This document shows, piece after piece, positions 1,699-41,631 of a stretch of 64,000 nt of DNA. The DNA comes from Methanobacteriota archaeon. Its GTDB lineage: Archaea; Thermoplasmatota; Poseidoniia; Poseidoniales; Thalassarchaeaceae. Below the pieces are notes generated by a model that worked only from the letters and a program-made list of their open reading frames with translations, was not told where the DNA came from and did no database searches. The stretch is from contig JAOMRN010000001.1 in assembly GCA_028355015.1 (NCBI GenBank), positions 1,229 to 65,228 on the forward strand, read 5' to 3'. Made by a program: the position numbers and the translations under genes. Every line of letters starts with the position of its first letter. Position 1 is the stretch's first letter.

Positions 1699-1722
1699 TT
1701 TTTAATAAAAAATTATTTTTTA

Positions 1723-2742: not shown

Positions 2743-2847
2743 GCACTTGTGAAATATACATAGAATATGAAGGGGTGTTTATCGATTGCTGAATTTGCAG
2801 AGTTATCTGTCCCTTATGTTGAAGGATGAAACCTCTTCCGGACGACT

Positions 2848-3177: not shown

Positions 3178-3257
3178 TTTAAGTATCCGAAGTGCTGAAA
3201 TGCAGCCTCTGATTCGCAGGTACATCGAATATACGGGTCAACTCCGTTTTTCGATAG

Positions 3258-4688
3258 GTGATGAAGATGAAAGAAGATAATCATAAGGCCGATTCCGATG
3301 ATGAGGATTCTTGGGCTCTTTATGCAGATGCAGGATATGGTCAGTCCGAGGTAGAAGTCGATGAAAATCTGGAAATTAATCCTTTAGAAGAGGAAGTTTG
3401 GTATGATGGCGATGATTTTGAGTTTGAAGGTGCAACAATAAACTGGGATGCACCACCGTGCCCTGCACCTCTAGGAATAGAACATATCATTCGTATCGGT
3501 TGTTGTGATTTTTGTGTTCAGAGGCTTTCTGGAAGGCGCACAGCATCAAAAGGAGAAGAAGGCGGGCAAGAAATAAGAAAAGAAGCTTATCAAAGAAACT
3601 CTGAATTAGAATCATCTGTCAAAAATGACCTCTGCCCAATGTGTGAGAATTTATTTGATGACATTGATAATATAGTGGTAAGAATTATTGATAAAATTGG
3701 TGAAGTAGAACATTCAACGATTCAACTTGGCATTCACCTACCTAAGGATTTAGTGGAAGAAGAAGATAGGATTCGCTCAAGACACGGCTCTCCTGGCTCT
3801 GCCCCTCTCAAACCTTCATTCGTCAGCCAAATACAATCTAAACTTTCAAACTTAGTTAATGGGGTCACTTATGTTAAAGAAAGGCCAGATTTAATGATTT
3901 TAGTAGATGGATTAACTTTGATGGTTGAGGTAGATATCCGGCCTGTGTTCATGTATGGGCGATATCGTAAATTAATTCGAGATCTTCCTCAAACTCGATG
4001 GCCATGCCGTGCTTGTCGTGGACGTGCACAAGGATGTGAATCATGTAATGAGACGGGGTTACAGTATCCAGATTCTGTTCAAGATCTAATTGGTGAGCCA
4101 ATTCGTCTTTCTTTAGGTGCAGAAGATACATCTTTCCATGGAATGGGCCGAGAAGACATAGATGTTAGATGCCTAGGAATGGGACGCCCTTTTGTTATTG
4201 AAATTAAAAAACCAGGAACTAGATTGGCTAATCTTGAAGAAATTCAGAAAGCAGTAAATGAAAATGCAGTAGATAAGGTTGAAATTAATAGTTTGAGATG
4301 GTCAGATCGCCGAGAAGTCGTTAAAGTCAAAGAAAGTCGTTCTGAGAAATCATATACAATACGATTCAAAGTAGATGGCATACCAGATGAGAAAACAGCA
4401 ATTGAAGCAATTTCGTCGCTTTCAGGTGTAGAGTTATCTCAAGAGACTCCTAAGCGTGTCGCTCACCGCCGAGCGGCGAAAAATAGGAAAAGAAAAGTAG
4501 TCTCACTTTCTGATATTATTGTTGAAGAAGATGAAATCCAATTTTCGGTTAGATGTGAGGCTGGAACGTATGTCAAGGAACTAGTTCACTCCGATGAAGG
4601 CCGAACAGTGCCCTCTGTTCGTAGCGTGTTAGGGGACAAAGAATGCACAGTTCTTTGGCTAGATGTTGAAGAGATTCACTATGAATGA
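3258..4688 (+). CDS. pus10: tRNA pseudouridine(54/55) synthase Pus10
   Basis: N-terminal Zn-binding CDFCVQR...CPMCENL. Catalytic region GREDIDVRCLGMGRPFVIEIKKP and C-terminal AGTYVKELVHSDEGRTVPS are present. It sits upstream of rpl21e, as in many Euryarchaeota. The listed start is GTG. Confidence 0.85.
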   Translation: MMKMKEDNHKADSDDEDSWALYADAGYGQSEVEVDENLEINPLEEEVWYDGDDFEFEGATINWDAPPCPAPLGIEHIIRIGCCDFCVQRLSGRRTASKGEEGGQEIRKEAYQRNSELESSVKNDLCPMCENLFDDIDNIVVRIIDKIGEVEHSTIQLGIHLPKDLVEEEDRIRSRHGSPGSAPLKPSFVSQIQSKLSNLVNGVTYVKERPDLMILVDGLTLMVEVDIRPVFMYGRYRKLIRDLPQTRWPCRACRGRAQGCESCNETGLQYPDSVQDLIGEPIRLSLGAEDTSFHGMGREDIDVRCLGMGRPFVIEIKKPGTRLANLEEIQKAVNENAVDKVEINSLRWSDRREVVKVKESRSEKSYTIRFKVDGIPDEKTAIEAISSLSGVELSQETPKRVAHRRAAKNRKRKVVSLSDIIVEEDEIQFSVRCEAGTYVKELVHSDEGRTVPSVRSVLGDKECTVLWLDVEEIHYE

Positions 4689-4767
4689 GTTATTTATCAA
4701 ATCCGAGTCCTTAAGAATACGAGGCAGGTCGACCGCTTCCAAGACCTATGGTCTGTAAGGTGATATC

Positions 4768-5064
4768 ATGGTAACAAGGACGCATGGACAACGCCAAGGA
4801 ACACGTTCAATTCTTAAGAAAAGTAAGCGTGATAAAGGCCGAGTTTTCATTAATAGAGTAATGTACCCGTATGCTGAAGGAGATAGAGTTGCTATCGTAT
4901 TAGATGGTGCGCAACACAAAGGCATGCCTCACCGTCGATTCCAAGGCCGTACAGGTACTATTGCAGGAAAGCAAGGTCGAGCTTATGTTGTTAATTTCAA
5001 AGATGGTAATATGAAAAAGACCGTAGTTGCTCGTCCGGAGCATCTTAAACCAATTAAGGGATGA
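4768..5064 (+). CDS. rpl21e: 50S ribosomal protein L21e
   Basis: N-terminus MVTRTHGQRQGTRSILKK, a 98-aa basic protein, in the conserved synteny with rpoF/DUF655/ksgA. Confidence 0.9.
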   Translation: MVTRTHGQRQGTRSILKKSKRDKGRVFINRVMYPYAEGDRVAIVLDGAQHKGMPHRRFQGRTGTIAGKQGRAYVVNFKDGNMKKTVVARPEHLKPIKG

Positions 5065-5423
5065 TTTTAATGAGTGAGAAAGAATTTGTAGATTTTGCTA
5101 CTGTACGTGAACTTTTATCCGATGCACGCGAAAGACGTGGAGATCTTTCCTATGAGCAAATCATGGCCCTTCAACATGCAGAGTGGGCAGCATCCACTAA
5201 TCGTGGCGGAACAAAAACTGATGCTAAGGTTTTCGTTGCACTATACAATGCCCTATCTGAAAATGAAAAACTATCTCAATACCCTGAAATATGCTCTAAA
5301 TTGGCAGAATTAACTCCGTTAAATGTCAAAGGAGTTAGAGTTATAATTTCAAGTAAAAGAATTGCAATGGATACTTCAGAGGTAGAAGATATCATTACTA
5401 CCATTCGTCAACACGTACTTTGA
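5061..5423 (+). CDS. rpoF: DNA-directed RNA polymerase subunit F (Rpo4)
   Basis: A 120-aa acidic protein that overlaps the rpl21e stop by 4 nt and occupies the rpoF slot in the conserved archaeal rpl21e-rpoF-DUF655-ksgA cluster. The call rests mainly on synteny and size. Confidence 0.6.
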   Translation: MILMSEKEFVDFATVRELLSDARERRGDLSYEQIMALQHAEWAASTNRGGTKTDAKVFVALYNALSENEKLSQYPEICSKLAELTPLNVKGVRVIISSKRIAMDTSEVEDIITTIRQHVL

Positions 5424-5485
5424 GTATAGAAATCCGTGTGTTTCTTCAATGAGTTAATTCTTGAATAAAGACCTGTCTGAGGTAG

Positions 5486-6067
5486 TTGAGCGTAATGCAT
5501 GCGAGTTCCCCTTCTGAGGCCGGAGATGGCCCAATATCTCCTTTTTCAGGTGAAACACATTTGAGAATATTGGATATGTCCGATAGAAGGCCTGTTGGGC
5601 ATGAAGTACATGCACTAACTGAACCGTCTCTATATTTGGTTCGTGCTAAAGTATTAGTCAAAGATGGTGTAAGTAATGGCGTAAAAGTTGCAGTATCCGA
5701 AAATAAACTAGGGCCAATGTCTCTACTCCGATATCGTGATCTTTCAACAACCAGTGAAGATGAACTTCTCAATGAACTAGTTGGTGCCATAAGGGATAAC
5801 TCAGAACTACATCTTGGATTTTATAATCGTGCTAATAATATTTCTTTGAAAGTACATGCTTTCCAACTTCTTCCAGGGATAGGCAAGTCTAAGGCGCAAA
5901 AAATGGTACAATCCCGTGGAATGGCCGGATGGATGGAGTTTTCAGAAGTAGACGAGGCTTGTGAAATTGATTCAGTCAAGTTACTAGCAGAGAGGTACCT
6001 TATAGAAATCGAAGATCCACTAAACAATCGTAGTATTCTTGATCATCTAATACGTACGTCTAATTAA
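5486..6067 (+). CDS. DUF655 family protein (helix-hairpin-helix nucleic-acid-binding)
   Basis: FYNRANNISLKVHAFQLLPGIGKSKAQKMVQSR matches the FFN..P.T.R.H.LELLPGIGKK block of DUF655. It holds the conserved position between rpoF and ksgA. Confidence 0.75.
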   Translation: MSVMHASSPSEAGDGPISPFSGETHLRILDMSDRRPVGHEVHALTEPSLYLVRAKVLVKDGVSNGVKVAVSENKLGPMSLLRYRDLSTTSEDELLNELVGAIRDNSELHLGFYNRANNISLKVHAFQLLPGIGKSKAQKMVQSRGMAGWMEFSEVDEACEIDSVKLLAERYLIEIEDPLNNRSILDHLIRTSN

Positions 6068-6079
6068 TTAGGAATTAAT

Positions 6080-6985
6080 ATGGATGATTTAACTCCCCGA
6101 CTTCTTGTCGATTTACTTAGAGACCATATTGTTCCCGACAAATCATTGGGTCAACATTTTCTTTTAGATACGAAGATAATCTCTCGCTCTATTGAAATTT
6201 GTAGTGAAGAGGGGTTCCCAATTAATTCGAAATCTAAAGTTCTTGAGATAGGGCCAGGCCCCGGTTCATTGACATTATATCTTTTGAGAAATGAAGCCTA
6301 TGTTTTTGGCATAGAAATTGACGAGGAAGCGATTCTTCATTTAGATAGAGTATTTGGAGATGCTAATGGCCAACTAGAAATTATTTCTGGAGACGCTCTT
6401 AGGCTAAATTGGCCTTTGGGTTTGACACATATAGTAGCAAATTTACCTTACCAAATTTCAAGCCCAGTCTTAGATAAAATTCAACAATATCATTTTAAAA
6501 ACCCTCTAAATGTCATCGTATTACTTGTCCAAGATGAATTTGCAGAAAGAATGTCCATGGAACATTATGGATCTCTAAGCCCTCTAGGTTTATCCCTATG
6601 GCTCGATTTTGACGTTAAATTAGATAAAAAAGTACCTGGCGGTGCTTTCAGTCCTGCTCCTCGTGTTAATTCTAGAATTGTATCTCTGGTGCCAGTAGAT
6701 CGTTCTCAGGAGAATGGAGAGATTTCTCGTAAGATGTTTAAGATAATAACTCAACATTGTTTTTCAAGCCGTCGGAAAAAAATTAGAACATTATTATCCC
6801 AAGTCCCTCGAAGAATTAGTCGAATAAAAGGATGGCATAAATCACGTTGGAAGGCAGCTGTGGAAGATTTATTGTTAAATCCACCAGATACATTTTCTAA
6901 TGAATGGTTTGAAAACAGACCAGACATGCTAGAACCTGAAGAATGGGCAATAATTGCTAATAGAATATCTTCATTTAATGAATAA
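6080..6985 (+). CDS. rsmA: 16S rRNA (adenine1518/1519-N6)-dimethyltransferase KsgA/Dim1
   Basis: Motifs LGQHFL, SAM-binding VLEIGPGPGSLT and catalytic ANLPYQISSP. Confidence 0.9.
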   Translation: MDDLTPRLLVDLLRDHIVPDKSLGQHFLLDTKIISRSIEICSEEGFPINSKSKVLEIGPGPGSLTLYLLRNEAYVFGIEIDEEAILHLDRVFGDANGQLEIISGDALRLNWPLGLTHIVANLPYQISSPVLDKIQQYHFKNPLNVIVLLVQDEFAERMSMEHYGSLSPLGLSLWLDFDVKLDKKVPGGAFSPAPRVNSRIVSLVPVDRSQENGEISRKMFKIITQHCFSSRRKKIRTLLSQVPRRISRIKGWHKSRWKAAVEDLLLNPPDTFSNEWFENRPDMLEPEEWAIIANRISSFNE

Positions 6986-7077
6986 ATAAGATAATTATGA
7001 CCGCGACTTGATATTATACGCATGGTTCCGCGGGACTACTGCGCAGCGGACATACATTCGCGCAAGGGGGCACTAAT

Positions 7078-8172
7078 ATGGCAAAGAAGGACACCTATCT
7101 CGCATTATTACGCCGTGGGATAGATGAAAAAACTGCTCAAATCCTGTCAGATGGTGGAATTAAAGTTGGTGATTTGAAAAATCTTGATGTCGAGACGTTA
7201 ACTAATAATTATGGTCTTAAGAAAGAAATAGCAACCTCTGTATTAGACGCGGTTAAATCAGGCCCTCGCTCTTCATCTAAGCAAAGATATCTTGCAGATG
7301 TTCTTTCGGATACCGGTGGGGTGAAGAAAGTTGACAAGATTGAAGAGCAGAGATTCAAGAGAGAACAGAAAGATTTGCATTCAGAACTTCTGGAGAAGAA
7401 AGAACAGTTACGAATTGCTAGAGTAGAGCAGTTTCGTGAAAAGAAATTAGTAATGAATAGATTAGGTAAGACTGTTGAACTCATAGTTAAATTAGAAAAT
7501 ACTTTTGATGAAGAGGGTAAAGATGAACAGCGCACTAAACTCAGAGATCAACTAGAGACTAGAGGACTTGAAGCCGCTAGAGATCATGAATTATTGGACT
7601 TATCAGGTACTCCTCAAGATATAGTTGATTTCCGTCGCAAGATCGCTCCAATATTATGTATGCACGCATGTCCAGACTGTGGAGAAGAAATGGACCCTCG
7701 AGGAGGAAATGTCATGGAAGATATGACAGACTTTGTTTTGATTTGTTGGGATTGTGAGAAAGAGTTCCGGGCACCTATGGCAGAAGTTGTAGAAAATAAA
7801 TTAGAAAATGGTGATAGGTTAACAATCGATCCTCAGAGAGGGCCAAGATTAGAAGTAATTCAACCTCCTAAGAAGTCTGAATCACTGAGTGTTGATGACT
7901 TAATTAAAAGAGATCTAAAGAAGACAGGAGCATCTTTCGCAGAAGTTGAAGCAGCGGTTGAAGCGAGTAAGTTGTCTGGTGGATTAATGAGTATTGAAGA
8001 TTGGATTGAACAGAAAATCGAAGATAAAGGATATATCCAAGCTCAAGAACATAGAGAAGAATTCATTCTTGCTACTGGTGCAGGGGCTACTAAATTTAAC
8101 AAATGGATGAAGAAAGCGGGACTGTATTTCAATAAACAAACAGGACGTTGGACTCGTTGGGAAGACCGTTGA
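7078..8172 (+). CDS. Hypothetical protein: N-terminal HhH-like domain, coiled coil, central zinc ribbon
   Basis: The N-terminus GIDEKTAQILSDGGIKVGDLKNLDVETLTNNYGLKKEIATSVLDAV looks helix-hairpin-helix-like. It is followed by a K/E-rich coiled-coil stretch and CPDCGEEM...CWDCEKEF. No family recognised. Confidence 0.6.
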   Translation: MAKKDTYLALLRRGIDEKTAQILSDGGIKVGDLKNLDVETLTNNYGLKKEIATSVLDAVKSGPRSSSKQRYLADVLSDTGGVKKVDKIEEQRFKREQKDLHSELLEKKEQLRIARVEQFREKKLVMNRLGKTVELIVKLENTFDEEGKDEQRTKLRDQLETRGLEAARDHELLDLSGTPQDIVDFRRKIAPILCMHACPDCGEEMDPRGGNVMEDMTDFVLICWDCEKEFRAPMAEVVENKLENGDRLTIDPQRGPRLEVIQPPKKSESLSVDDLIKRDLKKTGASFAEVEAAVEASKLSGGLMSIEDWIEQKIEDKGYIQAQEHREEFILATGAGATKFNKWMKKAGLYFNKQTGRWTRWEDR

Positions 8173-29287: not shown

Positions 29288-29391
29288 CCGCGCTTAGCTC
29301 AGTTGGCTAGAGCACCTGACTGTAGACTGGAAACACATGGTTGTAGGCAGCCATCAGGGGGTCCCCGGTTCAAGTCCGGGAGCGCGGACCA
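29288..29391 (+). tRNA. tRNA-Tyr (anticodon GTA) with a 27-nt intron at the canonical 37/38 position; CCA encoded
   Basis: Hand-folded cloverleaf. Acceptor CCGCGCT/AGCGCGG (C1-G72, A73, as required of archaeal tRNA-Tyr). D arm GCTC-AGTTGGCTA-GAGC. Anticodon stem CCTGA/TCAGG with loop CTGTAG|A interrupted by 29326..29352. Variable loop GGGTC. T arm CCCGG-TTCAAGT-CCGGG. The mature length would be 77 nt including CCA. Confidence 0.85.
29366..29391 (+). repeat. 26-nt direct repeat, copy 1 (3' end of tRNA-Tyr; att-like)
   Basis: CGGTTCAAGTCCGGGAGCGCGGACCA is identical to 33565..33590. Confidence 0.9.
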
Positions 29392-29413
29392 TAATATCAT
29401 CAGATTAGGTAAC

Positions 29414-31146: not shown

Positions 31147-33432
31147 ATGTCTCGGTTGAGAGTACTATTAATCTGCTTAATGATGATGGCCATTCCTGCA
31201 TCCCAGGTATCTGCTGATGTTGATGAAACGAATTCAAGTCCAGAGGTAACTATTGGGTTTGGCAATGTTACCAATGACACCATGGTATTCACCATGGATA
31301 CCTCTGTAGATGTGTATGTATACCAAGTAACATTGGCTTGGGAGAATGGTGCTGTTTATTGTGGCATCTCAGCATCCGGTGGACTCTCTGAAGAATATAA
31401 CTTGTATGTCAGCGTCCTTTATGCTGGGTGTTTGACAACAGGATACTATTATGGCGCTCAGGGAGGTGCCTGGATCCCCTCAGGTAGTAATGATACTCTC
31501 ACATCTATTTTGTATCAATCCAACAGCCCTGAGGTATGCATCGGGAATGCGACCTATACAGTCATGTTACCCGATGGGGAGTTCGAAACTCGACAAGCAG
31601 ACTTTGATCCCAATGATTGTCTGAGTTATACTATGTATGAAAGAGAATGGCCGTATGATCTATGGTATGTACTTGATGAAGACGGCAATGATGAAGGCGA
31701 CAATGAATCTGAGGCAGAGGAAATTATTGATGACAGTCTTTATCAGTTCAATGAAGATTTGACTGTATTAGAAAATTTGGAAAGTTTTGATGATTTTTCC
31801 ACTCTCATAGAGGCACTCAACATAACAGGATTAACTGATAATTTCAGTTCAAATAATACACCTCAGATGGGGTGGTCAATCTTTGCCCCCACTAATGATG
31901 CTTTTGCTTCTGCAGGCATAGATTTAGATGATTTTGATAGTTCAGAAGAAATAGAATTTTTGACTGAAATCTTACTCTATCATGTTACTTTCGCAGGACC
32001 ATATGCTATGAACTCAAGTATGGCCTACAACAGCTCGAGCGGCGAGTATGAGCCATACTGCCAGCCTTACACTGCTGACTGGATGCCGATGCTAAATGGA
32101 GAATATGCTGATCCATTCGATTACAGCTCTTGGACTGAGACTGTAACAATTTCGAATGACTGCCAGGGAAATCTTACAGTCAACCAGGCCTATATCATTG
32201 ATGCAGATAATCGAGTCTATGGTTATGAATACAACGGGGTCGATGGCTACCCTTTCAACAATCAACTTCCACATGGCTGGGAAATTGCTGAGGATAATGG
32301 GATGATTCAGGTAATCGATCAAGTTCTATTTCCGGCAAGCTTCAATTCTACACCACCGAATAATGATCAGCCAAGATTCAATCCTAGATTTGATATTCCG
32401 TCCAACCTAGAGAATGATGGAGAGTTTGGAGACTTAATGGATGCATTGGGAATGACTATGTTGATGGACGACATTACTATCGAGAATAGCCCTCAGATGG
32501 GAATGACGATATTCGCTCCAACAGATGAGGCATTTGCTGCGGCTGGAATTAATCTTGACGATTATGATAGTCTCCAGAAACTCGAAGGTTTGTCTGAAAT
32601 CCTTCTTAATCATATCTCATTTGACTGGGTATTATCATTCCCTGATGAATGTACGCCCACAGAGTTTGACATGGAAACTACAGATTCATTTTCGGTAACC
32701 ATTTCAAATGATTGTGAAGGTAATATCTTCGTCAATGAAGCAAAAGTTCTCTATTCCCAAGGAGTAGAAAATGGGGTTATTATCGTCATCGATCAAATAC
32801 TGATGCCGATAGAAGAAGAACCTGTAGAGGAGCCTGTCGAAGAACCTGTAGAGGAGCCTGTCGAAGAACCTGTAGAGGAGCCTGTCGAAGAACCAGTAGA
32901 GGAGCCTGTGGAAGAACCAGTAGATACAACCATAGAAACTCCAGTCGATGATATTCCTTTGCAGGATGATGATTCCAAAGTTGATGGCAGCGGACCTTCA
33001 GTTATTTTAGGTCAAAGCAGTACATTCTTTGGAGCGATGATATTGTTCACCATGGTATTGGTTCTAGTCGGTACAGCTGCGGTAAGATCTCCCAAGTCAC
33101 GATTAGATTCCGTAATAATGGAAAATGAAGTTGAAGCAGATGAATTATTGTCACTTCTTTCTAGATCAAAAATGGTTCAAATTATTCATGCATTGCATTC
33201 AGAAGAAAATCCAATTAGATTTACAGAATTAAAAAATAGAGTTGATACCTCCTCTACCACACTAACAAGAAGATTGGGCGAATTAGAGGACCATAATTTA
33301 GTAGAAAGAATTGATTATGAGACCGTTCCTCCCACTGTTGTGTATAAATTGACTGATTCCGGAACATCTCTTCTTCCTAGTTTAGAGACATTTTTTGAAT
33401 GGGTTCTAAATGATACAAATGAAACTGAGTAA
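31147..33432 (+). CDS. Membrane-spanning fusion: signal peptide, two fasciclin (FAS1) domains, (EEPV)9 linker, TM helix, cytoplasmic HxlR-type wHTH
   Basis: Signal MSRLRVLLICLMMMAIPASQVSA. FAS1 blocks WSIFAPTNDAFASAG...LLYHV...GMIQVIDQVLFP and MTIFAPTDEAFAAAG...LLNHI...GVIIVIDQILMP. TM FFGAMILFTMVLVLVGTAAV followed by basic RSPKSR. The C-terminal 110 aa are colinear with the stand-alone HxlR at 30607..30984. Confidence 0.8.
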   Translation: MSRLRVLLICLMMMAIPASQVSADVDETNSSPEVTIGFGNVTNDTMVFTMDTSVDVYVYQVTLAWENGAVYCGISASGGLSEEYNLYVSVLYAGCLTTGYYYGAQGGAWIPSGSNDTLTSILYQSNSPEVCIGNATYTVMLPDGEFETRQADFDPNDCLSYTMYEREWPYDLWYVLDEDGNDEGDNESEAEEIIDDSLYQFNEDLTVLENLESFDDFSTLIEALNITGLTDNFSSNNTPQMGWSIFAPTNDAFASAGIDLDDFDSSEEIEFLTEILLYHVTFAGPYAMNSSMAYNSSSGEYEPYCQPYTADWMPMLNGEYADPFDYSSWTETVTISNDCQGNLTVNQAYIIDADNRVYGYEYNGVDGYPFNNQLPHGWEIAEDNGMIQVIDQVLFPASFNSTPPNNDQPRFNPRFDIPSNLENDGEFGDLMDALGMTMLMDDITIENSPQMGMTIFAPTDEAFAAAGINLDDYDSLQKLEGLSEILLNHISFDWVLSFPDECTPTEFDMETTDSFSVTISNDCEGNIFVNEAKVLYSQGVENGVIIVIDQILMPIEEEPVEEPVEEPVEEPVEEPVEEPVEEPVEEPVEEPVDTTIETPVDDIPLQDDDSKVDGSGPSVILGQSSTFFGAMILFTMVLVLVGTAAVRSPKSRLDSVIMENEVEADELLSLLSRSKMVQIIHALHSEENPIRFTELKNRVDTSSTTLTRRLGELEDHNLVERIDYETVPPTVVYKLTDSGTSLLPSLETFFEWVLNDTNETE
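32815..32922 (+). repeat. In-frame tandem repeat, 9 x 12 nt (24-nt super-period), encoding (EEPV)9
   Basis: gaRgaRccWgtN repeats nine times, alternating cctgtagaggag/cctgtcgaagaa. It lies inside the 761-aa ORF, just outside the TM helix. Confidence 0.95.
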
Positions 33433-33564
33433 TGTCATTGTTTCACCCCTGAAAGCAGAGTTAGTAACTGCTTTACAGTACCATTTTTACCTTCACGAAT
33501 ATCCTCCAGGCACTGTCGCGACAACTCCCTCAGGAGCACGAACGCCTCATCCGATACCGGACTT

Positions 33565-33590
33565 CGGTTCAAGTCCGGGAGCGCGGACCA
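33565..33590 (+). repeat. 26-nt direct repeat, copy 2 (orphan tRNA-Tyr 3'-end fragment; att-like)
   Basis: Identical to 29366..29391. The upstream sequence does not supply a matching 5' acceptor strand, so this is a fragment and not a second tRNA. Confidence 0.9.
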
Positions 33591-33872
33591 AAAAATATAA
33601 ACTAAGAAAATTAAATTTCAAAATTGTGCGAGAAGATACAAGTATATTTAAATCAAAAATACAAAAGTAAACAGGCATTCATTAATGAATCATTACGACG
33701 TATAATAATGCACGCAGGACACATACTAACAATACTAATTGGCTCCTACGCATCTTTCGCTATTACAGTGATGAGTGTTACGCCATTATTAGGTTGAACA
33801 GCTAAAACTCAGTAATTCCCATCTTACCTCGAGGAATGACTTCAATAGCCTTCGATTACACAGTATAACTTC

Positions 33873-34120: not shown

Positions 34121-34489
34121 ATGAATGAAGATTTACAAAAAGAATTGATTTGGGCATTTGGTACATTAGTCGTTTTCATCATCTTTTTATTATTAGGAGG
34201 CATAAATGAAGTCAGTGGAATAGCAATTTCAGTAGGTGCTTTTCTATTAAGTTGGTCTGTAATGAGTTTTTCCCTCAAGAAATACGCCCCTAATAATGAC
34301 TCAGGGAAAGAACTAGAAAACGAAATGAAATGGTTTGCTGCTATCTTGATATTATTTCTTACTATAATGACTATCATCGGGAAAACTGATAGTGAGTTAG
34401 AATTATCATATTCATTATACGCCATTTTAGTATTTGGCTATACTTTGATTTGGATTATTCGCAGTTCTGCTATCAAATATTTCAATTAA
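34121..34489 (+). CDS. Hypothetical four-helix membrane protein
   Basis: 122 aa with four clear hydrophobic segments. It is more protein-like than the overlapping minus-strand ORF 34117..34425. Confidence 0.5.
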   Translation: MNEDLQKELIWAFGTLVVFIIFLLLGGINEVSGIAISVGAFLLSWSVMSFSLKKYAPNNDSGKELENEMKWFAAILILFLTIMTIIGKTDSELELSYSLYAILVFGYTLIWIIRSSAIKYFN

Positions 34490-34502
34490 TTATTGGAGCA
34501 AT

Positions 34503-34606
34503 GGGTAGGCATTGAAAGGGCCCATAGATAGCCGATAAGTTCACTCAAAACATATCAATGGGCTCAAGTAGAAACCCATTGATTCGTCTGTTAATCGATT
34601 ATGCTA
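34503..34606. repeat. Island intergenic repeat, copy R1 (104 nt)
   Basis: It aligns without gaps to 35627..35730, with 73 of 104 identical by hand count. Shared blocks are TGAAAGGGCCCA and the perfect palindrome TAATCGATTA (34592..34601). It also contains the hairpin CAATGGG-n12-CCCATTG. Confidence 0.75.
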
Positions 34607-34651
34607 AGCACAGTTTTTCGAATTTGCGGTTAGATACAATGTTAGTAAAAA

Positions 34652-35542
34652 TCATTTTTCGAACCACCAATCTCCTTCATTATTAGATGGGTAGTTACTG
34701 GGTAAGTTTTTCCAACTCTTATATCCGACTAGGTATACTTTCATTTCCGTCTCCACTCTGGTTATCCCACTCTCATCAAAGACCATACCATATATTGTTG
34801 AGGATTTCATATGACCAGTTTTTCCAAAGGTGCTCTCAGGATTTGCCCTAGCATATTCTCTTGCTTGATGTTCCTTAATTCCTTTATCGAGACAATAATT
34901 GACATAGATTTCTAATCGTTCTGCTTCATCAATATAACTAATATAACCATGCAAACGCCCATCTACGATTTCAGCTTGAAAAATATTTTCAACAGGCTTC
35001 TTATCTATTTTGATGTGGTTATATTTTGGGTCAATAGACATTATTTTCTGATTATAGGAAATAATATGCTCAATCTCGAATAATTCAGGTAAAATCGATT
35101 TCAATGATTCTTTCCAATTCGGAGTGAATCTTTTCATGAAGTTTGGATATGAATCATAATCACCAATTTCATAATCAACCGTTTTAATTATTGTTTGATT
35201 ATTTTCCTTTATTTCCATCAATCTGTAGCTATTACCATCAGGATTTACAGGTTTATATGTCGTATAGAATAAATCACTAATTGGTATTTTTCTATATTTA
35301 ATATTGATTTTTTTCGTGAATTCTTGTCCAAAAATTATGTGATCTGAGGAATCAATTCGAATTATATATTTTCTATGGAATAAGAATAGACTCATTGGGA
35401 AAGCCCCTAAGAAAATAGCAATAACAATACCAAATGTTAAATCATCAGGAATTACGTATAGTCCGATGAATATGAAGAAACCAAAAACAATAGGTAAACC
35501 CTGATAATCGAATACTGGGAATATGATTTTCTTCTCCTCCAT
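34652..35542 (-). CDS. Hypothetical protein, two N-terminal TM helices plus a soluble domain of about 230 aa
   Basis: 296-aa ORF. TM helices LPIVFGFFIFIGLYVI and FGIVIAIFLGAFPMSLFLF. No recognisable motifs. Repeats R1 and R2 flank it. Confidence 0.6.
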   Translation of the reverse strand: MEEKKIIFPVFDYQGLPIVFGFFIFIGLYVIPDDLTFGIVIAIFLGAFPMSLFLFHRKYIIRIDSSDHIIFGQEFTKKINIKYRKIPISDLFYTTYKPVNPDGNSYRLMEIKENNQTIIKTVDYEIGDYDSYPNFMKRFTPNWKESLKSILPELFEIEHIISYNQKIMSIDPKYNHIKIDKKPVENIFQAEIVDGRLHGYISYIDEAERLEIYVNYCLDKGIKEHQAREYARANPESTFGKTGHMKSSTIYGMVFDESGITRVETEMKVYLVGYKSWKNLPSNYPSNNEGDWWFEK

Positions 35543-35626
35543 ATTACTACCTAAACTTTCGACATATGATAGACCTTTAGGTCTGTTCCCCGATAATTAG
35601 AGGAGGGATACCGCCTAACATCGGAT

Positions 35627-35730
35627 GGTTAGGCTCTGAAAGGGCCCACTGAAAGCCCAATAATTCGCCGATTGCAATCGGATGGGTCTAAGCAGAAACC
35701 CTCAGATTTGTCTATTAATCGATTATACTA
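35627..35730. repeat. Island intergenic repeat, copy R2 (104 nt)
   Basis: Homologous to R1. It contains TAATCGATTA at 35716..35725 and the palindrome CCGATTGCAATCGG. The hairpin GCCTAAC-n8-GTTAGGC (35613..35634) overlaps its 5' end. Confidence 0.75.
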
Positions 35731-35780
35731 TGCTCTGATTCTCTAATTGAACGCCAGCCTATGAAAGAGAATACAGATTA

Positions 35781-35825
35781 CCTAATAATTCTTCAATTAC
35801 TATCGGATGGGGCTAAGTAGTAACC
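35781..35825. repeat. Island intergenic repeat, partial copy R3 (45 nt)
   Basis: cctaataattcttcaattactatcggatggggctaagtagtaacc aligns to the middle of R2 (cccaataattcgccgattgcaatcggatgggtctaagcagaaacc) at about 80% identity. Confidence 0.65.
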
Positions 35826-35949
35826 GTATAATTACTAACAACAAATACCTTATTTTAGCGGACCATAATTTTACAACGTTACTACTATTTTAATCTATTT
35901 GAGCACTGAGCCCAAAACTATATGCCGCTTGAAAACTAAGTATATAGTT

Positions 35950-37089
35950 ATGAGTGAGTTGAAAAATCGCGATAAAGAAAAACAAGAAAATGAAACTGTA
36001 TCAGTCTGGTTTAGAGCACAGAATGCTTTGAAAAATGAAGGTAATTTTAGCCGGATTCCGGGAACTCCTTCATATTCTGAATCTAGAAATAAAATATATG
36101 GAAGAAGAAGTGCGAGAACAATATTTAACAATCTTAGAACTGATAAAAAACTTTACAGGAATCATATTTTATCATATAGTGTCCATGGTCGAGAACATGA
36201 TTTATTGAGTGAGAGTGCAATAAATGACGAAGTTGATTCACGAACTGATATCCTTTTTCTTAGAATGAGGACTCCTGGACTTGATGAAATCTGCTGGAAC
36301 TGGAGTCAGGAGCTGCTATCGCATAGAGATTATCTACGATCAGCCGGTATTGATTTACCAATCGAAAATGATAATAGGAAAATCACACAAATTGAAATGA
36401 TTATAAGAAGTGGTTACTTACATAAAATATGGCATAATTCATTGTATGCTATGAGTGAACTAGGAATGGAAATTCCAAACTGGTGTAAAATTCTTCCTTA
36501 CAATCCATTAGTAAATGCATTTCATGGCACAAACCGAGATGATCAAGACATAGGTGAAAGATTATTATCAATTTTAGAAGAAAAATATCCAGAGTTACAT
36601 GCTGAATTAATCGCATCAAATCCGTTCCGTTCACCAAGAATTGGTTTTCAAAATGGGAAAGGAAATGTAGGGGGAACTAAGTGGCCCTCTATTTCTGATA
36701 TTATTTCAAGATTAGAATCAGGAGAATCTGTCGATCAGGATTGGGAAAATAAATTTCTAGAAGAACTGATTTATGATTATGATGAAGAAGAAGATGACTT
36801 CCCATATGAAAGCACAGAGGATCTTTATCGTTCATTGAAAGTCACTAACCTGAGAAGATGGGCAGATGCTGATGAGATAACTGGTGCTTGGTCTATGAAT
36901 CGTGAGAAATTAATTTCGGCTTGGGCTACTAGAACTGAAAAGATGGAGAGTGCTTATAGAAGACAAGGGGGGGCATACCCTAGAGTACCAAGGCTAACCG
37001 ATTGGACTATTTTTATTATGGAGAATGTAAATTTTTTCAAATTAGATGATGAGTTAATTTTAAGCCCGAAGATGCAAAGGAGTGAATAA
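35950..37089 (+). CDS. Hypothetical protein (about 379 aa from the first ATG; the ORF opens at TTG 35899)
   Basis: Long ORF in the island with an acidic patch YDYDEEEDDFPYE. No Walker, HUH or nuclease motif recognised. Its stop overlaps the next gene. Confidence 0.6.
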   Translation: MSELKNRDKEKQENETVSVWFRAQNALKNEGNFSRIPGTPSYSESRNKIYGRRSARTIFNNLRTDKKLYRNHILSYSVHGREHDLLSESAINDEVDSRTDILFLRMRTPGLDEICWNWSQELLSHRDYLRSAGIDLPIENDNRKITQIEMIIRSGYLHKIWHNSLYAMSELGMEIPNWCKILPYNPLVNAFHGTNRDDQDIGERLLSILEEKYPELHAELIASNPFRSPRIGFQNGKGNVGGTKWPSISDIISRLESGESVDQDWENKFLEELIYDYDEEEDDFPYESTEDLYRSLKVTNLRRWADADEITGAWSMNREKLISAWATRTEKMESAYRRQGGAYPRVPRLTDWTIFIMENVNFFKLDDELILSPKMQRSE

Positions 37090-37090
37090 T

Positions 37091-37591
37091 ATGAAATGTG
37101 ACGATTGCAAAGTAGATTTAATCTCAACAGATATGATTGCGGAAACTACCACTTACTATGAAGGCTACTTACGCTCAAGATTGCTTATACCTAATGAACT
37201 ACTTAATGAGGAGTTAAAAGAGTTAGGAAAACTAGAAGCAGAACTAATTTGGTCTGAATATAATAGCTCTCGGAGTAGATATATGGAGCATTTGGATGGA
37301 GGGTCATGGGATGGACGACCTGAATACCTCGATTTGATAAATCAAATCAAAGATATACATGTAGACATTATTGCTAAGGTATGCCCTAAATGCGGCAAAG
37401 TAAAGATCGTAGCCGATTTAATGAGTAGGAAAAAAATATTCACTAGTTTGGAAAAAATGGTAAAAACCCTCGTAATGAAACGTAAAAAATTAAACAAAGC
37501 CGAAGAGTTCGAAAAGAAGGAAAAAGCAAAAAAAGATAGGGAAATTGCTAAACTAAAAAAACAGATTGAGAAATTGGGCGGTGACTCATAG
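37091..37591 (+). CDS. Hypothetical split zinc-ribbon protein with Lys-rich coiled-coil tail
   Basis: CDDC at the N-terminus and CPKCG about 95 aa later. C-terminal tail KRKKLNKAEEFEKKEKAKKDREIAKLKKQIEKL. GGAG-like motif upstream of ATG 37091; GTG 37082 is an alternative start. Likely translationally coupled to the upstream gene. Confidence 0.55.
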   Translation: MKCDDCKVDLISTDMIAETTTYYEGYLRSRLLIPNELLNEELKELGKLEAELIWSEYNSSRSRYMEHLDGGSWDGRPEYLDLINQIKDIHVDIIAKVCPKCGKVKIVADLMSRKKIFTSLEKMVKTLVMKRKKLNKAEEFEKKEKAKKDREIAKLKKQIEKLGGDS

Positions 37592-37641
37592 GCCGGCGTT
37601 CCTTTCAACCAATCGCATGGGCACCCCATCCATCCGTATAC

Positions 37642-37654
37642 GAAGCAAAGGGTA
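37642..37654. repeat. Left arm of a 13-bp inverted repeat flanking the R-M/recombinase cassette
   Basis: GAAGCAAAGGGTA here; its reverse complement TACCCTTTGCTTC is at 40906..40918. Both lie in intergenic DNA rich in ACCCTA/TAGGGT motifs. Confidence 0.6.
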
Positions 37655-37681
37655 CCCTATGGTATGATATGCACCATAGGG
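37655..37681. repeat. Perfect hairpin / palindromic site (9-bp stem, 9-nt loop)
   Basis: CCCTATGGT-atgatatgc-ACCATAGGG lies immediately after the left IR arm, 64 nt downstream of the 37591 stop. It may be a terminator or a recombinase site. Confidence 0.8.
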
Positions 37682-37727
37682 GTATCATAGGGATAACCAT
37701 AAGTATCAATAGCAAGACCATATATTT

Positions 37728-38519
37728 GTGGAACTTGAACAAATTATGAATCGTCTTGCAGAGCAGGTAGCAATCGTAGACAGAAATATTACACCTACTC
37801 AAAACTATTATATTCCTTCAATAGGAACTTCTAGTGAGCCTACAATTGTACATAGACTAGTAGAAGAATGGGTAAAAAAACATCCTGATGAGTTACCAGG
37901 TATTATGCTAAATAAAAGAGGAAAGGGAACAGAAGGTTGTTTTGAAATAAAATATCCAGGTGCCAAAGGTTCTGAAAAGAAATTGGATTTTGGTTTTTCA
38001 AGTTCAACAGGACATGAAAATTCTGATAATTTAGATAACTTAGAATGGGCAATCGAATTTAAAAAAATCAATTGGATTGGTGGGACAGGAACTGACCAAT
38101 CAGAAAGAGCAGTAGGTAAACTATGCTCTCCTTATCCGGCTACAGGACCAATCTTATCCGATGCCTTAAGGGTCATAAAACATAGTCATGGAACACGTCA
38201 TGCAGTGATTTTAATAAGTCCAGATGTCCATTCTGATCAATTAGAATTATGTAAAAATCATCCAGATAGAGAACGTAGATGGAAACCTGAAAATCCAAAT
38301 GATAGAATTATAGCACTAACTAATTCTTTCAAGAAAAATAATGGTTATGCATTTGAAGCAGAACCTCTGTTACCATTTGTTGAGAAAATATTTGAGTATA
38401 AGGAAATTAACTTCAATGAACGTATTATTAAGAAAATTACTGGATTAACAAACCACCCCGTTTATTCAAGATTGACACTTGTTGGTTGGGAAATTAAAAA
38501 AGAATCTATAGCAGATTGA
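37728..38519 (+). CDS. Putative type II restriction endonuclease (PD-(D/E)xK-like)
   Basis: Candidate catalytic pattern KKLDFGF ... (23 aa) ... LEWAIEFKK (D ... E-x-K). It is convergent with, and overlaps by 58 nt, a C5-cytosine methyltransferase gene. Start is GTG 37728 or ATG 37746. Confidence 0.55.
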   Translation: MELEQIMNRLAEQVAIVDRNITPTQNYYIPSIGTSSEPTIVHRLVEEWVKKHPDELPGIMLNKRGKGTEGCFEIKYPGAKGSEKKLDFGFSSSTGHENSDNLDNLEWAIEFKKINWIGGTGTDQSERAVGKLCSPYPATGPILSDALRVIKHSHGTRHAVILISPDVHSDQLELCKNHPDRERRWKPENPNDRIIALTNSFKKNNGYAFEAEPLLPFVEKIFEYKEINFNERIIKKITGLTNHPVYSRLTLVGWEIKKESIAD

Positions 38520-39841
38520 ATTTCAATAATCATGTTTACATTAACTGCATTACCAAGTTGTTTGTATGATTGATTATCTTGTTCACCTAGAATAAACGGC
38601 TTTCCAAAAATACCATCTACATCGAAACTCTGTATTCTAGCACACTCTTTGGGTGTTAAGTGCCGCCTTAACCATCCTACAACGGGTATTTGTGCCATGG
38701 CCACTAGTGCTGGAAAATAGTCACCTCTTTTAACACGAATTCCAGAAGGTCTGAACTGGAAAATATTTTCCCAATTAGTTCGACTATCTGGGCCCGCTTG
38801 CCACTCATATTTTGTTCGACTAACAGGAATTATTGGCTTACCATCTTTATCATTTTCAAGAACTTTCCAGCGTTTTAACCAGCCATCAATGTAGTCCTTA
38901 TTCTCTGAGTATAGATACCTATTTTTCTTTACAAAATCTTGTTTCCAAAGTGGTAAATTAATTTGTTTTATAATCTCTGTTTTATCCATTCCAGATTCGA
39001 TAGGTCTAACCCAGCCATAAGAAGACCAATTTTTGTGTATTTGAATTAATTGTTCTACACTGTATTGCTCTAAATCACCAGGTATCTCGGCATCACCTTT
39101 GAATGAATCTGCCCATATCGGATGACCTGGTAATTTTGTTTCAACATTTACATTAATAAGAAATTCTTCCCACATTTCTAACCATTTAATTTCCTTTTCC
39201 GACATATGGTATTTTTCAGGAACATGGTCGTCTAATATTGTCCTAACATCTAATGAGTTAGTCTCATGTTCCTTTGGAAACACAAATTTACCACTCACTA
39301 GATCAGAACGTATTGCCACAATATACACTCTTTTTCTAACCTGAGGGACTCCAAATTTATTCGGTGAAAGTACAGCATATTCATGATTATATCCTAATTC
39401 AGAAAGTCTCGATTGAATTACAGAAAATGTATTGCCTCCATCATGTTTTACTAGATTAGGTACGTTTTCTAGAAATATAACTGAAGGTTGATGCTTTTCT
39501 GCAATACTACAAATATCGTGGAATAGAGTGCCTCTAGTTTGATCCATAAATCCTTTCTGTGATCCTGACTTGCTAAATGGCTGACAAGGAAATCCTGCAC
39601 ATATTATGTCCATCGGAGGTATCTCATCTATCACTTCCCTTATGTCACAATTAACAGAGTAACCCTGTGGTTGACCCCAATTCAATTCATATACCTCTGC
39701 AGCATTTTTATCAATATCAGATGCAAAAACACATTCATGTCCTAAACGATGTAGAGCTGCATGAAACCCTCCTATGCCACAGAACAAATCTACGAATCGC
39801 ATATCATCACCAGGAAATACACGGTTAATAAGGAAATGCAA
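38462..39841 (-). CDS. DNA (cytosine-5)-methyltransferase
   Basis: Motif I DLFCGIGGF, motif IV GFPCQPFS, motif VI FLENVPNL, motif X QLGNAVNVN, and a long variable target-recognition region. The likely true start is MRFVDLF at 39802. Confidence 0.9.
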   Translation of the reverse strand: MHFLINRVFPGDDMRFVDLFCGIGGFHAALHRLGHECVFASDIDKNAAEVYELNWGQPQGYSVNCDIREVIDEIPPMDIICAGFPCQPFSKSGSQKGFMDQTRGTLFHDICSIAEKHQPSVIFLENVPNLVKHDGGNTFSVIQSRLSELGYNHEYAVLSPNKFGVPQVRKRVYIVAIRSDLVSGKFVFPKEHETNSLDVRTILDDHVPEKYHMSEKEIKWLEMWEEFLINVNVETKLPGHPIWADSFKGDAEIPGDLEQYSVEQLIQIHKNWSSYGWVRPIESGMDKTEIIKQINLPLWKQDFVKKNRYLYSENKDYIDGWLKRWKVLENDKDGKPIIPVSRTKYEWQAGPDSRTNWENIFQFRPSGIRVKRGDYFPALVAMAQIPVVGWLRRHLTPKECARIQSFDVDGIFGKPFILGEQDNQSYKQLGNAVNVNMIIEIQSAIDSFLISQPTSVNLE

Positions 39842-39842
39842 T

Positions 39843-40742
39843 CTATTTCTTGAGTACTAAATCATCTTTAGTCCAAACCTTCGGTTTTTTTGATTTCTCT
39901 ATCTTCTTATTCTTCTTTCTCTTGATTCTGTGCCAAACTTTGTCACCCCACCATTCAGGTATGTCAAATTGATTTCTATTTGTGTGAAATTTATTTTTGA
40001 TAGTTCTTAGAACGCCTTGGCTTCTCCACTGCCCTCCTAATTTACCTTTTATTTCTCTTTTATTTAGTGATCTTGCTACACTAGTTGCAGTTACTTCATT
40101 ATGCACGACTTGCCAAGCCATGTAGTCAATCCATGATTGTTCAGTCCAATTAGGAAATAGGTCTCCGTTCTTATCAAAGTCCCATCCATAAATCGCTCTA
40201 GTAAAGCGAAGTTGTTCTCTTTTCAGATATGCCATACCTTCTAATGTCCTCTCAGAAATTAAACCTCTTTCCATCTCTGCTAAACCTGACATTATTGTCA
40301 AAAAGAACTTCCCCATAGCGTTACTTGTGTCTATTGCCTGACCGCCTAAATCAACAATGTGGACTTTGATATGATGGTCTTCATTAAGATATTCAATGGT
40401 ATTAATGGCATCACTAGTAATTCTAAATAACCTATCTAATTTCATAGAAATAAGATGTTCAAATTTTCCACTTTCAATTCTTTTTAGCAATAGTTTACCT
40501 GCTGGCCTCTCAAAAAGAGGAATACCTCCACTAACGCCTTCTTCAATTATAATATTCCTAGAAAGTAATTCTAATCCTTTCATACGAGCATAATCCATTA
40601 TTTTTTGCTGTTGACTATCAATACTATTTCCTTCATCGACTTGCCTTCCTGTAGATACACGAATGTATGCTACAGTGGAAATTGCATCTGGCTTAGACTT
40701 AGGCACAATTAAGAATATCACATTACAATAGATATAAATCAT
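39843..40742 (-). CDS. Serine recombinase (resolvase catalytic domain plus truncated recombinase domain)
   Basis: Catalytic VAYIRVSTGRQVDEGNSIDSQ, LDRLFR and SGLAEMERGLISERT motifs. The C-terminal LNKREIKGKLGGQWRSQGVLRTIKN resembles the large-serine-recombinase recombinase domain, but no Zn-ribbon/coiled-coil is present. Its stop lies directly upstream of the MTase ORF (1 nt between them). Confidence 0.8.
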   Translation of the reverse strand: MIYIYCNVIFLIVPKSKPDAISTVAYIRVSTGRQVDEGNSIDSQQQKIMDYARMKGLELLSRNIIIEEGVSGGIPLFERPAGKLLLKRIESGKFEHLISMKLDRLFRITSDAINTIEYLNEDHHIKVHIVDLGGQAIDTSNAMGKFFLTIMSGLAEMERGLISERTLEGMAYLKREQLRFTRAIYGWDFDKNGDLFPNWTEQSWIDYMAWQVVHNEVTATSVARSLNKREIKGKLGGQWRSQGVLRTIKNKFHTNRNQFDIPEWWGDKVWHRIKRKKNKKIEKSKKPKVWTKDDLVLKK

Positions 40743-40905
40743 TCTAATCTAAAATTATAGCGCCCCCCTATATTATTCAAGTGAATCATTGGGATGTACT
40801 AGCACACCCAATCATTCTACATGGAAACTAATGGGCGCCTTCAGTAAACCCTACCCTGCATATTTGGAGCATAGATACCGTTGCACTGCAATACAGCGTA
40901 TTCCC

Positions 40906-40918
40906 TACCCTTTGCTTC
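40906..40918. repeat. Right arm of the 13-bp inverted repeat flanking the R-M/recombinase cassette
   Basis: TACCCTTTGCTTC is the reverse complement of 37642..37654. The neighbouring direct 9-mers CCCTACCCT sit at 40849..40857 and 40903..40911, and ATCATAGGG is shared with the left side. Confidence 0.6.
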
Positions 40919-40977
40919 AAGTTGAATCATAGGGTTATCGAAGGAGTCGTTTAATCTCTACTCAATGATCCATACAA

Positions 40978-41364: not shown

Positions 41365-41414
41365 TTATTAGGGATAGACTTTGCTACGCCACAAACTAGT
41401 AAAGGAGTCACAGG

Positions 41415-41510
41415 GTAGTGTATCAGTTAACAGACTCTGGTGCGGATCTTCTTCCTAGTTTAGAATCATTTTTTGAATGGGTAATTAATGATACAAATCA
41501 AACTCAATGA
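41415..41510 (+). pseudogene. Displaced relic of the 3' end of an HxlR-type gene (31 codons plus stop)
   Basis: It translates to VVYQLTDSGADLLPSLESFFEWVINDTNQTQ*, versus VVYKLTDSGTSLLPSLETFFEWVLNDTNETE* at 33337..33432 (24/31 aa and about 75/96 nt identical by hand alignment). An in-frame TAA lies 4 codons upstream and similarity is lost beyond it. Confidence 0.75.
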
Positions 41511-41631
41511 ATGCATTTTTAAACAATGGAATTGGTTGATTTGAAAGATTTTGATATATTTTCATGTTCAAGGTCTTGGATATAGACTCATAAAGGGATG
41601 TCAAGTCGGCGACTCGCTACGAGGGATGAAT

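Follow-up and report, generated by a model that had tools for sequence, protein, structure and literature searches.

The window analysed here, a stretch of 64,000 nt of Poseidoniales (Marine Group II) DNA, corresponds to C1:1229-65228 of a 1.5-Mb, 19-contig metagenome-assembled genome (MAG) that is 84% complete. It contains three adjacent genes enclosed by two inverted copies of the 13-mer GAAGCAAAGGGTA, namely a candidate type II restriction endonuclease (REase), a C5 cytosine DNA methyltransferase (MTase) and a serine recombinase (Table 1). The initial annotation of this DNA had suggested that they are a mobile restriction-modification (R-M) cassette, and the three open reading frames (ORFs), the 58-nt overlap at the 3' ends of the REase and MTase ORFs, the 13-bp inverted repeat, the shared 9-mer ATCATAGGG, the hairpin and the palindrome AGGGTACCCT were all confirmed, at the coordinates that it had given. 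The 1-nt gap reported between recombinase and MTase turned out to be an artifact of ORF calling, as in homologues the MTase begins at the MRFVDLFCGIGG methionine (~39802), and GTG 40706 is the probable start of the recombinase.

The spacers holding the two 13-mers measure 136 and 235 nt, and 13 nt is the longest inverted match between them. None of 3000 spacer shuffles reached this length (maximum 12), in line with the claim that the match is unlikely to be due to chance. The 13-mer is confined to the two spacers, as had been proposed, within the window only, since a third exact copy is found genome-wide at C7:7039. Likewise, three TAGGGT copies do lie within the 371 nt of both spacers, where they are parts of half-site-like CATAGGGTA motifs, but the ACCCTA/TAGGGT clustering does not extend to the window as a whole, in which TAGGGT occurs 13 times against 21 expected and is not enriched. 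The arms of the hairpin at the inner REase-side end are further half-site-like motifs (CATAGGG), and the hairpin is 100% conserved in all cassette copies. An Rfam scan of 33-42 kb (E <= 1) gave no match.

The trio is a discrete unit with exact borders that occurs in many contexts. A recombinase 87% identical to that of the window (P0028) was found on 62 collection blocks, and in every contig read it was followed by the MTase and a convergent ORF of 256-271 aa. BLASTN of the window against eight contigs (L014-L021) recovered the trio at ~87% DNA identity over 3.1-3.2 kb, and three further contigs (L065, L109 and L110) carry cassette DNA 98% identical to the window; the trio-bearing contigs were drawn from at least five datasets. 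On the REase side, eight kinds of flank (A, S1, F, D, B, A', A'' and E) were distinguished, five of them in the 87%-identical contigs and three more in L065 and L109/L110, and on the recombinase side three kinds (B, B' and C). A metagenome scan with the inner 30-mer of the REase end returned two contigs, one of which was L065. Judging from their names, the contigs are MEGAHIT k141/k127 assemblies, which cannot be chimeric across repeats of <=65 nt, and the junctions should thus exist in reads. The proposal of a mobile R-M cassette was in this respect supported, the trio being transferable with borders at the two repeats and having at least eight REase-side and three recombinase-side contexts.

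The position of the borders was resolved to a few nucleotides by anchoring alignments on the inner sequences of the cassette. BLASTN matches end at 37642/37644, 37635 or 37610 on the REase side, and at 40917 (L015-L017, L019 and L020) or 40939 (L014 and L021) on the recombinase side. At the REase end, AGGGTA followed inward by CCCTATGGTATG... is constant, whereas the preceding 7 nt (GAAGCAA, GGAGCAT, GAACCAT, GAATCAA, GACACAT, AAATCAA or GGAGCAA) and all outer DNA are variable; at the recombinase end, the inner GGGTA followed by G(C/G)GAATAC... is constant among the contigs compared. Homology therefore always breaks inside the 13-mer, with the outer 7 nt going with the flank and AGGGTA and the inner DNA going with the cassette. 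This distribution differs from that of a transposon with terminal inverted repeats, as only AGGGTA is constant, the outer 7 nt change and nothing is duplicated beyond the shared TA. It also revises the view that the inverted repeats are the element's own ends, since they are halves of sites belonging to a Poseidoniales family. As a separate observation, L014-L021 have ~195 nt more than the window between the recombinase-side site and the recombinase gene, a stretch that includes a 40-aa ORF called on the other strand and, 68 nt away from the main core, a core-like GAAGTAATGGGTA motif in inverted orientation.

Table 1. Genes, sites and repeats at the cassette locus (positions in the window).
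Feature	Position	Strand	Basis or remark
Site S1 core GGAGCAATGGGTA, left border of cassette X	34495-34507	+	L065 junction
Cassette X, 3.15 kb, with orphan ORFs of 296 aa (-), 396 aa (+) and 169 aa (+)	34508-37654		ends in A-arm and core
A-arm, accessory sequence outside the core (...CAATCGCATGGGCACCCCATCCATCCGTATAC)	37592-37641	+	recurrent copies
Site S2, predicted attL, GAAGCAAAGGG-TA-CCCTATGGTAT	37642-37665	+	proposed crossover TA 37653-37654
13-mer GAAGCAAAGGGTA	37642-37654 (+); reverse complement 40906-40918		sequence reading
Palindrome AGGGTACCCT	37649-37658		sequence reading
Perfect 9-bp-stem hairpin CCCTATGGT/ACCATAGGG	37655-37681	+	sequence reading; inner REase-side end of cassette
Shared 9-mer ATCATAGGG	37684-92 and 40926-34		sequence reading
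Candidate type II REase, 263 aa, GTG start	37728-38519	+	ORF call
C5 cytosine DNA MTase, 459-aa ORF, likely start ~39802	38462-39841	-	PF00145
Serine recombinase, 299-aa ORF, ~287 aa from probable GTG start 40706	39843-40742	-	PF00239
Site S3, predicted attR, GAAGCAAAGGG-TA-GGGAATACGCT	40895-40918	-	TA 40906-40907; outer half is the right inverted repeat, 40906-40918
B-arm, accessory sequence outside S3 (...GAGATTAAACGACTCCTTCGATAACCCTATGATTCAACTT)	40919-40977	-	recurrent copies

The 13-mer is one half (11 nt plus the central TA) of a 24-bp dyad, GAAKCAWAGGG-TA-CCCTWTGMTTC. All eight matches to the corresponding pattern GAAKCAWAGGGTACCCTWTGMTTC fell in Poseidoniales, against ~0.07 expected. 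Site S2, whose left half is the left 13-mer, has the same dyad plan as solo sites, many of which are dyads themselves, for example GAAGCATAGGG-TA-CCCTATGCTTC. The sequences outside the core recur as well. A 20-nt pattern from the A-arm (CGTATRYGAANCAWAGGGTA) matched 26 times in the 596 Gb of GTDB genomes scanned. Of these matches, 17 were in Poseidoniales MAGs or single-amplified genomes (SAGs) and showed a conserved arm of ~65 nt (...TACGGTTTCTACTACTGAACGCATGGGTACCCCATCCATCCGTATACGAAGCAAAGGGTA) followed by unrelated DNA past GGGTA; no match to the pattern was found in viral contigs. Copies of the A-arm, which contains an internal GGG-(C/T)A-CCC sub-site 31 bp from the main TA, are 91-98% identical in contig C7 of the same MAG and in at least 17 Poseidoniales MAGs/SAGs. 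Within the MAG, C7:7008-7053 repeats 46 nt of the left spacer (93% identical) and C15:83658-83707 repeats part of the right one (88% identical), one-mismatch copies of the 13-mer with recognizable arms lie at C4:15546 and C15:70921, and further site copies in C4 and C15 are mostly close to contig ends. The core CAWAGGGTA was intergenic in 10 of 25 cases in this genome, compared with 2 of 26 for the reversed control. A density test with 7-mers was dropped because its reversed control overlaps the motif (ATGGGTA fits both) and is uninformative.

Several sites outside the cassette display exchanged flanks. L093, L095 and L096 are pairwise recombinant around the dyad center, as are L085 and L086, and C7 of the MAG relative to SAG AG-313-L18 (SAG L047/L091). 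Taken together, the constant and variable borders and the recombinant flanks place the exchange point within AGGGTA, with TA as the center of symmetry. The B-arm was found at the REase end of L016, at another cassette in a genome of the same genus (L075/L192) and in UBA8684 (L191). The last of these carries an uninterrupted B-arm/GAAGCAAAGGG-TA-CCCTCTGATTC/A-arm (reverse complement) downstream of a housekeeping-type gene with no recombinase nearby, which, by its sequence, is the architecture predicted for the target of the window before insertion. Two other features of the sites were noticed. In L032 and L088 (G081:C1:10711), A-arm and core abut, with no spacer, a 3' fragment of a TolB/PD40-like beta-propeller gene (...WSADGRYIAFHSDRSGNFDIW...), the site interrupting or truncating a coding sequence. 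In genus g18 (G030 and relatives), the ~95 nt after the CAAAGGGTA core (GCGTCTGACAAGACCCACTGCAAGTCCTTTGAA...) are a dispersed repeat in themselves, with an inverted CCTTTG ~27 nt past the TA and with one to four copies, often at contig ends, in 27 of 37 genomes of another Poseidoniales family.

The same cores delimit a second block, which contains no recombinase. In L065 (Tara contig CEWO01171603), which is 98.4% identical to window 37644-40820 over 3221 nt, the first 42 nt are 100% identical to window 34466-34507 and are joined straight to 37655 onward. The segment 34508-37654, termed cassette X, is thus present in the window and absent in L065, with the junction inside GGGTA of the direct cores S1 and S2. 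None of the genes of cassette X were found among 150 genomes of the family, where only its last 40-59 nt (the A-arm) recur.

The recombinase ORF matched PF00239 at 1e-30 and, weakly, PF07508 (21.2 bits, with a cut-off of 21.1 bits). Its best NCBIfam matches were CcrB (3.5e-20) and XisF, its best solved relative was the catalytic domain of TP901-1 integrase (5e-17), and the catalytic domain also matched Gin and gamma-delta resolvase (5e-11 to 1e-7). The protein retains each of the 55 columns that are invariant in a 28-member alignment, among them those of the YIRVSTxRQ, DRLFR and E-helix motifs. With the AlphaFold2 (AF2) model (pLDDT 70), the top Foldseek hits were Bxb1 and phiC31-type integrases, aligned over ~250 columns that span their catalytic and recombinase domains (E 1e-10 to 4e-6). 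Two of the three parts of a large serine recombinase (LSR) are accordingly present, the catalytic and the recombinase domains, and the zinc-ribbon/coiled-coil part is absent: the family ends at 260-290 aa just past the recombinase domain, with a tail that is short, basic and of low pLDDT and has no Cys cluster. Going by alignments and the predicted fold, the enzyme is a "mini-LSR", with a catalytic and an LSR-type recombinase domain and no zinc ribbon.

It is the sole PF00239 gene in this genome. The family has more than 1800 metagenome relatives at E <= 1e-5 and is present in 31 of 301 genomes and 12 of 26 genera, some copies having stop codons; patchy occurrence and stop codons are as expected for a mobile gene. 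One search of GTDB genomes gave only a 29%-identical bacterial match, the 31 genomes coming from a separate genome search, and the viral relatives were generic LSRs only (<=43% identity). Among homologues of at least 42% identity, those of the window/L014 type, G006, G119 and G081 have an intergenic CAWWGGGTA core 100-400 nt upstream of the gene. In G030 and G006 the recombinase block lies between direct cores, and the comparison of the G030 block with G252 ends inside the arm, at a contig end. In L023/L024 and L026, homologues 55-72% identical are paired with DUF4379 zinc-ribbon proteins of 478-511 aa and no R-M pair, the pair in L023 lying between housekeeping genes (peroxidase, Spt5 and DnaJ), an arrangement that points to further types of cargo for this family of recombinases.

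The MTase is a C5 enzyme, as the initial annotation had named it, by its match to PF00145 (1e-77, profile positions 1-322 of 324), by TIGR00675 dcm (1.5e-75), by the similarity of its N-terminal domain to M.HhaI (2e-57) and by PADLOC type II MTase models. The 263-aa protein has 26 homologues, all marine, and its family adjoins a C5-MTase at every locus retrieved. The gene order is convergent in L014-L021, L065 and L109-110 and divergent in L022, L079, L080 and L082. The motif D81...E104-x-K106 (numbered from the M at 37746) is invariant in 22 homologues, and its D and ExK lie on consecutive beta strands of the AF2 model (pLDDT 85). On the basis of this motif and model, the protein is likely the REase, a member of an orphan PD-(D/E)xK-like candidate family whose nuclease role is suggested by the constant MTase partner.

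The R-M pair was also encountered without a recombinase in four contexts, two of them housekeeping, one a short contig with the R-M pair alone and one a defense island. The island in L080 (Logan DRR337556 contig, 114-8065) holds a homologue of the REase candidate (72% identical) and a C5-MTase, next to a MazG-like gene, GmrSD_N, a Z1-domain protein and DUF4420. In the whole genome G000, the most under-represented 4-bp palindromes are GATC (observed/expected 0.52) and AGCT (0.64), which are known targets of type II systems with C5-methylases (Sau3AI and AluI types); both are candidate specificities of this or other R-M systems of the lineage.

From these observations, segment 37655-40905 is on balance probably a self-contained 3.25-kb mobile R-M cassette with an LSR-type recombinase, integrated at the TA of a 24-bp dyad in a reaction presumably catalyzed by its own recombinase. 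The target would be the 24-bp palindrome GAAGCAAAGGG-TA-CCCTTTGCTTC, with 11-bp half-sites and usually arms of 45-65 nt, of a family specific to Poseidoniales, and the inverted 13-mers would be the halves of a split target (B-TA and TA-B'), each retaining the TA. A dyad of 11-bp half-sites around a 2-bp center is the crossover-site plan of serine recombinases, as in hix, gix and res site I. Recombinase dimers would bind the half-sites and make a 2-bp staggered cut at the central TA, followed by conservative strand exchange. In large serine integrases, the zinc-ribbon/coiled-coil domain confers attP/attB direction control, and loss of polarity with a palindromic core dinucleotide is established for phiC31 and Bxb1 core mutants. 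With a palindromic TA and an enzyme devoid of this domain, both site polarity and attP/attB direction control should be lost. Any two sites might then recombine in either alignment, resulting in insertion, deletion, exchange of neighbors and possibly inversion, and blocks with no recombinase, such as 34508-37654, would be moved in trans. The predicted empty junction is ...CCGTATACGAAGCAAAGGG-TA-CCCTTTGCTTCAAGTTGAATC..., and the predicted circle junction is ...GTATTCCC-TA-CCCTATGG... (also given as ...GCAATACAGCGTATTCCC-TA-CCCTATGGTATGATATGC...).

A number of observations weigh against this reading. S2 is a good dyad, but S3 has an inner half (AGCGTATTCCC) that makes a poor half-site, as does the reconstructed attP. 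The poor half of S3 may, speculatively, explain why neighbors are more diverse on the REase side (eight kinds) than on the recombinase side (three kinds). The circle junction GTATTCSCTACCCTATGGTATG had no match in viral contigs; no excision, circular form or inversion was seen at contig level; and a truly orthologous empty site was not found, exact-protein look-ups of the flanking 169-aa and 128-aa ORFs giving no record. The claim of a cognate REase stands on the invariant D...ExK motif and the regular MTase partner, but a nuclease fold was not recovered: the candidate had no significant match in Pfam (all 22 homologues), NCBIfam, PADLOC, a PDB-sequence profile or Foldseek-PDB (best E 0.12). 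Furthermore, a PF00239 gene is missing altogether from 11 of 12 site-rich genomes, which shows that the sites can persist where this enzyme is lacking. Variable regions are also where both the recombinase genes and the sites are concentrated, and this could give a local association with no functional link. The gene absence is itself weak evidence, because MAGs systematically lose variable islands: contigs often break at sites, a contig start is no more than 300 nt away from 16 of ~150 listed sites, and G027, a genome in one contig, starts 39 nt before a site. An apparent anti-correlation of recombinase and motif is not relied on because the pattern GAANCAWAGGGTA is too narrow, family f3 using CAATGGGTA variants.

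The abundance of sites in genomes lacking a serine recombinase is also what would be expected if the junctions, although real, had been made by another activity, with the serine recombinase being a passenger or acting on other sites. This alternative is unlikely, though well above the level at which it could be neglected. The catalyst could be a host tyrosine recombinase, for which the 6-nt shared junction AGGGTA would also be suitable as the overlap, but no other recombinase is linked to the cassette, and homologues of the serine enzyme lie near a core in four lineages. An HUH-type nuclease acting 3' of GGGTA is a second option, since each junction consists of one conserved "good" side and a variable side, like the products of enzymes cutting 3' of their recognition sequence. 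The third option, breakage and rejoining at palindromes or cruciforms, would suit the many neighboring sequences that are GC-rich hairpins, and is argued against by exact junctions without indels in at least eight independent comparisons.

It is very improbable that the 13-mer is a shared regulatory or terminator element and that mobility comes from ordinary homologous recombination between dispersed intergenic repeats. Both copies in the window are indeed upstream of and co-directional with their operons, and dyads often lie between gene ends like bidirectional terminators, but sites elsewhere are not consistently upstream of co-directional genes, for which reason a promoter reading of the arms was rejected. 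A C/D-box small RNA reading of the arms was considered by eye and dropped. The arms, 45-65 nt long and 75-98% identical, would be enough for some homologous exchange, but the breakpoints are located at the core and not spread along the arms, and there are junctions between arms and inner sequences that are unrelated apart from 6-9 shared nt. Marginally less probable still is a Hin/Gin-like invertible segment at 37655-40905 that switches an outside promoter into the REase gene or the recombinase-MTase operon (phase-variable restriction), as there are two inverted recombinase-type sites with the recombinase inside as in Hin, flanking genes that read into the cassette from both sides on the ORF map of the window, and a B-arm that adjoins the REase end of the cassette in L016 and the opposite end in the window. 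Against this, L016 shares only the ~55-nt arm and not the locus and is hence not an inverted allele, no contig has the same two flanks and a flipped cassette, flipping a unit with both convergent operons has no obvious regulatory effect, and the domains are LSR-like and not those of a small Hin/Gin/Cin/Pin invertase of ~190 aa with a C-terminal helix-turn-helix (HTH). The "DNA invertase Pin-like" name of some homologues in source databases is an automatic label. The suggestion of a recombinase-mobilized or invertible module is thus supported as regards mobility, whereas no evidence of inversion was found in the contigs.

The R-M cassette and cassette X both lie inside a larger 8-kb insertion. 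A 113-nt direct repeat (75-78% identical) occurs at window 33330-33442 and 41408-41520, 8078 bp apart, and the right copy is the orphaned 3' end of an HxlR-type gene (...DSGADLLPSLESFFEWVINDTNQTQ, ending in a stop) just upstream of rpl15e, which means that the whole 8-kb island replaced the end of the FAS1-HxlR gene. A 32-nt direct repeat (94% identical) is present at 29366-29397 and 33565-33596, and ARAGORN called no tRNA across the window. A family of ~120-nt intergenic repeats (AGGCATTGAAAGGGCCC...TAATCGATTA...) has copies at 34501-34624, 35625-35748 and 35756-35825 and at least 20 more in the small or variable contigs C4, C7 and C15; the copies begin directly after a GGGTA core and look like a conserved "inner arm" of the site system. 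In C4, ~29% of the sequence lies outside crude ORF calls, compared with 5-7% in core contigs.

With regard to systems already described, the staphylococcal cassette chromosome (SCC) with its Ccr recombinases is the closest. Both involve an LSR-lineage recombinase encoded on a cassette with R-M or defense cargo, CcrB being the best NCBIfam match, and adjacent blocks with no recombinase that have the same short sites at their borders and are presumably mobilized in trans. Ccr proteins, however, have 440-560 aa with a zinc-ribbon/coiled-coil, compared with ~287 aa and neither part here, and SCC uses one site in rlmH with direct repeats, whereas the present sites are dispersed 24-bp palindromes with a TA center and inverted halves in an archaeal host. 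Tandem mobilization of defenses by SCC is described in PMC11470126.

The sites themselves resemble hix (Hin), gix (Gin) and res site I (Tn3/gamma-delta) in being dyads of two ~12-bp half-sites around a 2-bp crossover dinucleotide, with extra half-site-like motifs ~30 bp apart nearby that are reminiscent of accessory sub-sites. Invertases and resolvases have a small C-terminal HTH, in contrast to the LSR recombinase domain of the present enzyme, for which no enhancer/Fis logic is known. Integrons (IntI/attC) are similar in that islands of short gene blocks lie between imperfectly palindromic sites of ~60-130 bp and the homology of arrays breaks inside a short conserved core. They differ in that the sole linked recombinase here is a serine enzyme and not a tyrosine IntI, there is no attI/Pc platform, and the sites occur in both orientations and break at the center of the palindrome.

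The cassette also fits mobile R-M units, the selfish elements conceived by Kobayashi and Furuta, among which are units with flanking repeats or a link to recombinases, as a complete R-M pair behaves like an insertable unit found in unrelated contexts and the same pair is found without the recombinase in housekeeping or defense-island surroundings. What sets it apart is that its borders are assigned to a defined family of palindromic targets and that it carries its own serine recombinase. To our knowledge, an R-M unit with its own serine recombinase and a defined palindromic target has not been described for archaea. A literature search returned no paper containing both "Poseidoniales" and "serine recombinase" and none describing these sites.

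A broader proposal can be put forward tentatively, as a possibility that falls short of the probable: a form of serine-recombinase cassette exchange not described before, in which mini-LSRs act on dyads present throughout the lineage, may build and reshuffle the hypervariable islands of Poseidoniales. If so, minimal LSRs of ~260-290 aa would act on 24-bp dyads (...CAWWGGG-TA-CCC...) with arms of 45-65 nt, and gene blocks would be inserted, deleted and swapped, including defense cassettes and, in trans, blocks with no recombinase. Such a system would do in archaea what integrons and SCC arrays do elsewhere, with different chemistry and non-directional sites.

The uncultured archaea of Marine Group II rank with the most abundant microbes in surface seawater. 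For the assembly of their strain-variable islands, the locus offers a concrete, testable mechanism, in which the recombinase is short, the 24-bp site has an exactly predicted cut point and "before/after" alleles exist in nature. It also defines a candidate orphan REase family whose constant partner is an HhaI-like C5-methylase. Should the enzyme act in the way proposed, a compact serine recombinase with a simple palindromic site, apparently without direction control, would join the enzymes that can be characterized. The breaking of MAG assemblies at particular repeats would be explained, and so would the movement of R-M and defense genes within and between Poseidoniales genera, across which the arms are 91-98% identical.

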